A stretch of 1,133 nt of DNA, from the NCBI RefSeq assembly GCF_003334405.1, contig NZ_QOWM01000047.1. The stretch is one strand, 5' to 3'. Positions within the stretch are counted from its first letter, which is position 1. Each line of letters starts with the position of its first letter. A model generated the notes under the pieces. It had not been told where the DNA came from, made no database searches, and saw only the letters and a program-made list of their open reading frames with translations. Shown in pieces: positions 1 to 1,133 of this stretch. Source of the stretch: Escherichia coli (GTDB lineage Bacteria > Pseudomonadota > Gammaproteobacteria > Enterobacterales > Enterobacteriaceae). The position numbers were made by a program, and so were the translations under genes.

Positions 1-1133
1 AAAAACTGGATCGACAAAGAAGAATATCCGCAATCCGCAGCCATCGACCTGCGTTGCGTAAATATGGTTGCCGATCTGTGGCATGCGCCTGCGCCGAAAA
101 ATGGTCAGGCCGTTGGCACCAACACCATTGGTTCTTCCGAGGCCTGTATGCTCGGCGGGATGGCGATGAAATGGCGTTGGCGCAAGCGTATGGAAGCTGC
201 AGGCAAACCAACGGATAAACCAAACCTGGTGTGCGGTCCGGTACAAATCTGCTGGCATAAATTCGCCCGCTACTGGGATGTGGAGCTGCGTGAGATCCCT
301 ATGCGCCCCGGTCAGTTGTTTATGGACCCGAAACGCATGATTGAAGCCTGTGACGAAAACACCATCGGCGTGGTGCCGACTTTCGGCGTGACCTACACCG
401 GTAACTATGAGTTCCCACAACCGCTGCACGATGCGCTGGATAAATTCCAGGCCGACACCGGTATCGACATCGACATGCACATCGACGCTGCCAGCGGTGG
501 CTTCCTGGCACCGTTCGTCGCCCCGGATATCGTCTGGGACTTCCGCCTGCCGCGTGTGAAATCGATCAGTGCTTCAGGCCATAAATTCGGTCTGGCTCCG
601 CTGGGCTGCGGCTGGGTTATCTGGCGTGACGAAGAAGCGCTGCCGCAGGAACTGGTGTTCAACGTTGACTACCTGGGTGGTCAAATTGGTACTTTTGCCA
701 TCAACTTCTCCCGCCCGGCGGGTCAGGTAATTGCACAGTACTATGAATTCCTGCGCCTCGGTCGTGAAGGCTATACCAAAGTACAGAACGCCTCTTACCA
801 GGTTGCCGCTTATCTGGCGGATGAAATCGCCAAACTGGGGCCGTATGAGTTCATCTGTACGGGTCGCCCGGACGAAGGCATCCCGGCGGTTTGCTTCAAA
901 CTGAAAGATGGTGAAGATCCGGGATACACCCTGTACGACCTCTCTGAACGTCTGCGTCTGCGCGGCTGGCAGGTTCCGGCCTTCACTCTCGGCGGTGAAG
1001 CCACCGACATCGTGGTGATGCGCATTATGTGTCGTCGCGGCTTCGAAATGGACTTTGCTGAACTGTTGCTGGAAGACTACAAAGCCTCCCTGAAATATCT
1101 CAGCGATCACCCGAAACTGCAGGGTATTGCCCA
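1..1133 (+). CDS. gadB: Glutamate decarboxylase (PLP-dependent, group II decarboxylase family), internal fragment truncated at both ends; about residues 82-458 of the 466-aa GadA/GadB protein
   Basis: Frame 1 on the + strand is open across the whole window (377 codons, no stops). The translation matches the E. coli GadA/GadB sequence as I recall it, including the SxSGHK PLP-lysine motif (codons at 568-585), the IDIDMHID segment (463-486) and the C-terminal region [17 protein letters not shown] (1081-1131). Codon usage (CTG, CCG, GGT, CGT, AAA rich) is typical of E. coli. GadA and GadB differ almost only in the N-terminal residues, which are outside this window, so the gadB symbol is a guess between two paralogs. 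Confidence 0.96.
568..585 (+). other. PLP-binding active-site motif S-A-S-G-H-K; the Schiff-base lysine codon AAA is at 583-585 (Lys276 in GadB numbering)
   Basis: Direct translation of 568-585 gives SASGHK. An S-x-x-x-H-K motif carrying the pyridoxal-phosphate lysine is characteristic of group II PLP decarboxylases. The residue number follows from window codon 1 being Lys82. Confidence 0.85.

Follow-up and report, generated by a model that had tools for sequence, protein, structure and literature searches.

The hexamer repeat in the gadA coding sequence of Escherichia coli is almost certainly an incidental by-product of coding that serves no function in itself and at which no slippage can be observed. 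The initial annotation had regarded the repeat as most likely a mere consequence of the peptide that it encodes, and this reading is borne out, as no length polymorphism was found at the strain, metagenome or family level. The question put by the initial annotation is thereby closed for a repeat that shows neither length polymorphism nor maintenance at the DNA level, and the repeat as such matters very little.

The gadA window and its hexamer repeat

The window, which here means the whole stretch of DNA that was analysed, is 1133 bases long, and its frame 1 is open over the whole length. Among complete E. coli genomes, gadA of the K-12 strains MC4100 and DH10B is 100% identical to the window, and the earlier call of the gene as gadA/gadB was therefore correct. 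The translation matches residues 82-458 of GadA in the PDB (1xey_A) with E = 1.4e-269, and taken together the same residues of 1xey_A and of GadB (1pmm_A) give E about 1e-269; the Pfam family PF00282 (Pyridoxal_deC) is matched with E = 4e-99. The window thus belongs to GadA/GadB, which are group II, fold-type I PLP-dependent decarboxylases of PF00282, and in comparison with E. coli GadA/GadB (PDB 1xey, 1pmm) it is the reference allele of gadA, with no difference. Throughout, the number of a Gad residue is that of the window codon plus 81, so that the fragment comprises residues 82-458. All 5,426 complete E. coli genomes contain a gad match; the median copy number is two, corresponding to gadA and gadB. 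The features discussed below are as follows.

1..1133, plus strand: internal fragment of gadA (glutamate decarboxylase alpha), from the identity to gadA, the open translation and the PDB and Pfam matches
463..474, plus strand: two perfect tandem copies of ATCGAC, coding for I236-D237-I238-D239
475..480, plus strand: degenerate unit ATGCAC with 2 mismatches against ATCGAC, coding for M240-H241
481..486, plus strand: third perfect ATCGAC, coding for I242-D243, of which D243 is the conserved Asp predicted to pair with the PLP pyridine nitrogen
580..585, plus strand: codons of H275 and K276, the latter being the lysine of the S-G-H-K motif that forms the Schiff base with PLP; active-site context

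The repeat at window 463-486, ATCGACATCGACATGCACATCGAC, lies in frame 1 and is translated as IDIDMHID. Its units, ATCGAC ATCGAC ATGCAC ATCGAC, correspond to I236-D237-I238-D239-M240-H241-I242-D243. The coordinates, the units and the peptide that had been described from the letters alone are exact, and Tandem Repeats Finder returns the same coordinates, with a period of 6, 4.0 copies and 77% matches; its score of 34 falls below the usual threshold of 50. The exact period-6 register within the repeat extends over 14 nt and comes from the two perfect adjoining copies.

A 12-nt near-repeat was also observed in the window. Its copies, CCTACACCGGTA (window 392-403) and CCGACACCGGTA (452-463), are 60 nt apart, match at 11 of 12 positions, and code for Y-T-G-N and D-T-G-I, respectively. 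The second copy adjoins the hexamer repeat. This looks like a chance match. The remaining direct and inverted repeats of the window are short, have two copies and are at chance level.

Codon choice and the strength of the repeat

The hexamer repeat is no more than chance would give. A Tandem Repeats Finder score of at least 34 was reached somewhere in the window in 160 of 2000 dinucleotide shuffles (8%) and in 220 of 2000 codon shuffles (11%). Synonymous redraws were also made, in which the peptide was fixed and codons followed the usage of the gadA window outside the repeat, where ATC accounts for 13 of 19 Ile codons and GAC for 13 of 23 Asp codons. In these redraws, the first two hexamers were identical in 28% of cases, and all three Ile-Asp hexamers in 9%. 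Thus, the DNA repeat follows from the peptide. The peptide pattern XY-XY-..-XY appeared in only 0.5% of protein shuffles and is rarer than the DNA repeat. A slippage-prone SSR is expected to have several perfect units beyond chance; what is found here is a perfect pair of adjoining units, followed by a degenerate unit and a single further copy.

In Escherichia, the segment leading into the putative PLP-binding residue D243 is Ile-Asp-Ile-Asp-Met-His-Ile-Asp, and in the mechanism that we propose its three Ile-Asp pairs become the same six bases because E. coli prefers ATC for Ile and GAC for Asp in gadA.

ATCGAC occurs 5 times in the window versus 0.67 expected in dinucleotide shuffles, and this over-representation is the point in favour of another explanation, namely that the repeat functions within the coding sequence as a DNA or RNA element, such as an iterated ATCGAC protein-binding site, an mRNA structure or a regulatory signal. 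Such an element is extremely improbable here. All five occurrences are in-frame Ile-Asp codons. Moreover, a search of both strands of the window against Rfam at a permissive threshold gave no match, and the local RNA fold of the repeat region is no better than that of shuffles (z = -1.0).

As a separate observation, the window has five Ile-Asp dipeptides, and ATCGAC is the in-frame spelling of every one of them (window 10-15, 43-48, 463-468, 469-474 and 481-486). Under independent codon choice with the gene's own usage, such five-of-five spelling has a probability of about 0.0045, a figure calculated post hoc. The uniform spelling may reflect a codon-pair preference, and it is a mild regularity.

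Synonymous changes in sister species

Evidence on maintenance at the DNA level comes from the close relatives of E. coli. A codon-independent scan for the 13-residue peptide of the segment was made with one genome per species, and among 100,044 species representatives the peptide is confined to Escherichia. The repeat is present in E. coli and in Escherichia sp. E1V33. In E. albertii, both gad copies have the spelling ATT GAT ATC GAC ATG CAT ATC GAC, which gives the same peptide, and Escherichia sp. MOD1-EC7003 has ATC GAC ATC GAT, by which the tandem is broken and the peptide kept. Relatives at 66-68% identity have LDIDIHVD or ISVDIHVD, without identical adjoining hexamers. Since the tandem is lost through synonymous codons in E. 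albertii and MOD1-EC7003 but the peptide stays the same, it is the peptide, and not the DNA repeat, that is under selection. DNA maintenance beyond what the peptide needs, which is another property tested for in slippage-prone SSRs, is therefore not seen, given these synonymous breaks and the 9-28% of codon redraws that repeat the hexamers.

The same breaks largely refute the notion of a DNA or RNA element, since the repeat has decayed synonymously in sister species; in addition, distant homologues retain the length of the peptide, not the DNA pattern.

In E. albertii, E. coli E69 and Escherichia sp. E1V33, the two paralogous copies of a genome spell the segment alike. A literature search on gadA/gadB gene conversion returned incidental mentions only; the alike spelling is consistent with homogenisation of gadA and gadB within a genome.

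The encoded segment in the active site

An AlphaFold2 (AF2) model of the window protein has a mean pLDDT of 94.2. In this model, DSSP assigns a helix at 139-153, an ordered link GIDID and a strand MHID at 159-162 (window numbering). I236-D239 are thus placed in the ordered helix-strand link, with pLDDT about 98, and D243 ends the predicted strand. Alternation along a beta-strand was considered as the full cause of the Ile-Asp periodicity and is only partly supported, since DSSP puts just MHID in a strand.

D243 and A245 (window D162 and A164) align without gaps to D244 and A246 of Arabidopsis GAD1 (AtGAD1). Asp244 of AtGAD1 forms a salt bridge to the PLP pyridine nitrogen, and the roles given for D244 and A246 are pairing with the PLP nitrogen and ring stacking, respectively (review, PMC11357613). 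A literature search on Asp243 of GadB or of glutamate decarboxylase yielded nothing usable, and the role of D243 was assigned via the alignment to AtGAD1 D244 together with the statement in the review. By this alignment, D243 is the predicted cofactor-binding Asp, two residues before the putative ring-stacking Ala, A245. The SGHK motif is found at window residues 192-195, which are Gad residues 273-276, and Lys276 is the PLP lysine of E. coli GAD (PMC7761890). The suggestion that the repeat sits in an active-site region agrees with these assignments, as its final codon is that of D243, aligned to Asp244 of AtGAD1, the salt-bridge residue of the PLP nitrogen.

Conservation across the protein family

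A family search over 1.84 billion cluster representatives gave 150 relatives, of which 142 cover the segment. The motif H-[VI]-D-[AG]-A is carried by 135 of the 142, and the representatives share at most 50% mutual identity. In 132 of these 135 homologues the length from G235 to F249 is the same; among the remaining three, one is a truncated fragment and the other two have a single-residue change upstream of position 238. Indels between residues 238 and 249 are absent from the 135 distant homologues. As the motif H[VI]D[AG]A had served to select this set, it would be circular to read the invariance of H241, D243 and A245 from it, and an unfiltered alignment of 41 sequences was used instead. 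In that alignment H241, D243 and A245 are invariant, H275 (window H194) is invariant as well, and K276 (window K195) is nearly so.

The family consensus of the repeat segment is [L/W/I]-D-[I/V]-[P/D]-[I/L/V/M]-H-[V/I]-D. Homologues have L, W or I at position 236, mostly D at 237, I or V at 238 and mostly P at 239, and LDIDIHVD is common among closer relatives. Judging from these alignments, the triple Ile-Asp of E. coli arises by the conservative changes L236I, I240M and V242I on a D239 background, and it is not itself conserved. Thus, the attribution of the repeat to a conserved peptide holds for H241, D243 and the hydrophobic positions only, whereas the triple Ile-Asp is Escherichia-specific.

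On the proposed mechanism, selection on the peptide would keep H241, D243 and A245 fixed and positions 238, 240 and 242 hydrophobic, and the spacing from the preceding helix to the cofactor-binding Asp would be fixed too. A gain or loss of 6 bp would move the fixed residues relative to the cofactor, and the absence of 6-bp variants described below would be due to this displacement. From the fixed spacing and the conservation, we infer that a 6-bp Ile-Asp indel would inactivate the enzyme.

Length variation in genomes and metagenomes

Length alleles were sought with synthetic queries of 122-152 nt, in which the repeat was altered by -6, +6, -12, -18 or +12 bp and flanked by 58 nt of wild-type sequence on either side. 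The junction k-mer of the -6 bp allele is ACCGGTATCGACATGCACATCGACGC, and that of the +6 bp allele is GGTATCGACATCGACATCGACATGCAC. The queries were run against 5,426 complete E. coli genomes, with 5,431 matching records and about 10,815 gad copies, and an allele with the queried change is expected near 100% identity and at top rank. None of the -6, +6, -12, -18 and +12 bp alleles was found among the about 10,815 gad copies of these 5,426 genomes. The best wild-type matches were 140-bp alleles aligned with a gap, at identities of 95.7% (-6), 95.9% (+6), 91.4% (-12), 87.1% (-18) and 92.1% (+12), and the identity distributions of the synthetic queries were the wild-type distribution lowered by the gap.

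The top match of the -18 bp query was a 138-bp allele at 87.7%. It was rejected as a repeat-length variant, since the bases missing from it are the CC at window 458-459, upstream of an intact repeat; one record carries it. This allele is gadA of E. coli O104:H4 2011C-3493 (NC_018658.1), where the deletion is located four bases before the repeat and the annotation marks the gene as frameshifted. The deletion is a singleton among 5,431 records and may be a mutation private to this strain or a sequencing error. The allele also served as a positive control. Used as a query, it scored 100%, and exactly one record was at 99% identity or above; hence the search can detect singleton indel alleles. Searching all complete E. 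coli genomes with synthetic indel queries thus provides a quick test for rare length alleles, down to singletons. One further length variant was seen in the complete genomes besides that of 2011C-3493, a 1-nt deletion at window 506 in gadB of strain SCU-482 (NZ_CP053247.1), which is annotated as frameshifted. The adjoining gadC is annotated as frameshifted likewise, and for this reason the deletion in gadB is probably an assembly error.

In eight divergent alleles sampled, the 24 bases of the repeat are identical and SNPs are confined to the flanks. Metagenomes gave the same picture in a sample that is small (25 copies) but independent of the genome set. With exact flanks and 0-23 nt between them there was no match in the metagenomes, and with 24-54 nt allowed, the spacing was exactly 24 nt and the 24-mer the same in 25 of 25 copies. 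An alignment of many alleles had been suggested as the way to look for 6-bp indels at this position, and indel alleles of 6, 12 or 18 bp are absent from the 5,426 genomes, from the 25 metagenome copies and from the family segment. The length polymorphism in repeat units by which slippage-prone SSRs are recognised is thus seen neither in the 5,426 genomes nor in any of the 25 metagenome copies.

Slippage and known repeat systems

The initial annotation raised the possibility of in-frame slippage, and nothing supports actual slippage here. A stronger form of the idea is that the two perfect ATCGAC copies are a true hot spot of replication slippage, in which in-frame gains and losses of Ile-Asp inactivate the enzyme and are purged by purifying selection. 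Misalignment between adjoining direct repeats is an established mechanism, the copies are perfect and adjoining with 14 nt of exact period-6 register, and the strong constraint on the segment means that selection could mask such events. Population data are blind to mutation rate, so that rare slippage events purged by selection would go unseen, and all of the counts above would be compatible with a modest increase in mutational input that selection then clears. A hot spot of this kind is nevertheless very unlikely. There are two perfect units only, in a repeat of chance level. Inactivated gad copies persist in the population, with an IS1 insertion and frameshifts, and none of these involves the hexamer repeat; the survival of such disabled alleles (IS1 insertion, 1-nt deletion, 2-bp deletion) indicates that purging is not instant. 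This persistence is perhaps due to the redundancy of gadA and gadB. Despite it, a hexamer indel is found in 0 of about 10,815 copies. Furthermore, sister species have lost the perfect tandem synonymously, with no sign of consequence.

It could also be imagined that the ATCGAC tandem acts as a switch, in which mutation would now and then insert or delete an Ile-Asp beside the putative PLP-binding Asp and would reversibly silence one of the two redundant Gad paralogues in frame, at a rate too low, or through variants too short-lived, to be caught among about 10,800 copies. We consider this scarcely credible, and an incidental origin in coding is preferred over both forms of slippage.

Comparison with known repeat systems points in the same direction. 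In lacI, three tandem CTGG units form a short tandem-repeat mutational hot spot within the coding sequence. The gadA repeat is similar in that direct repeats adjoin each other within an open reading frame, and misalignment during replication is possible in principle. In contrast to lacI, it has two perfect units, its unit is a multiple of three so that a change would be in frame and cause no frameshift, and about 10,815 gene copies show no variant allele. The simple-sequence contingency loci of Haemophilus, Neisseria and Campylobacter consist of many perfect units; their length is highly polymorphic, among strains as well as inside a single strain, and they switch expression. They share with the gadA repeat a position within the coding sequence, where changes in length alter the protein, but the gadA repeat is without many perfect units, length polymorphism or expression switching.

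Other gad matches in complete genomes

Several matches of the genome search have an unusual form or location. One gad copy of strain TUM10008 (NZ_CP135658.1) is split by an IS1A element, and its match is in two pieces. Five or six gad-fragment matches are on plasmids and not on chromosomes, and at least one of the plasmid matches is a 3.7-kb record that contains no more than bases 1-50 of the window.
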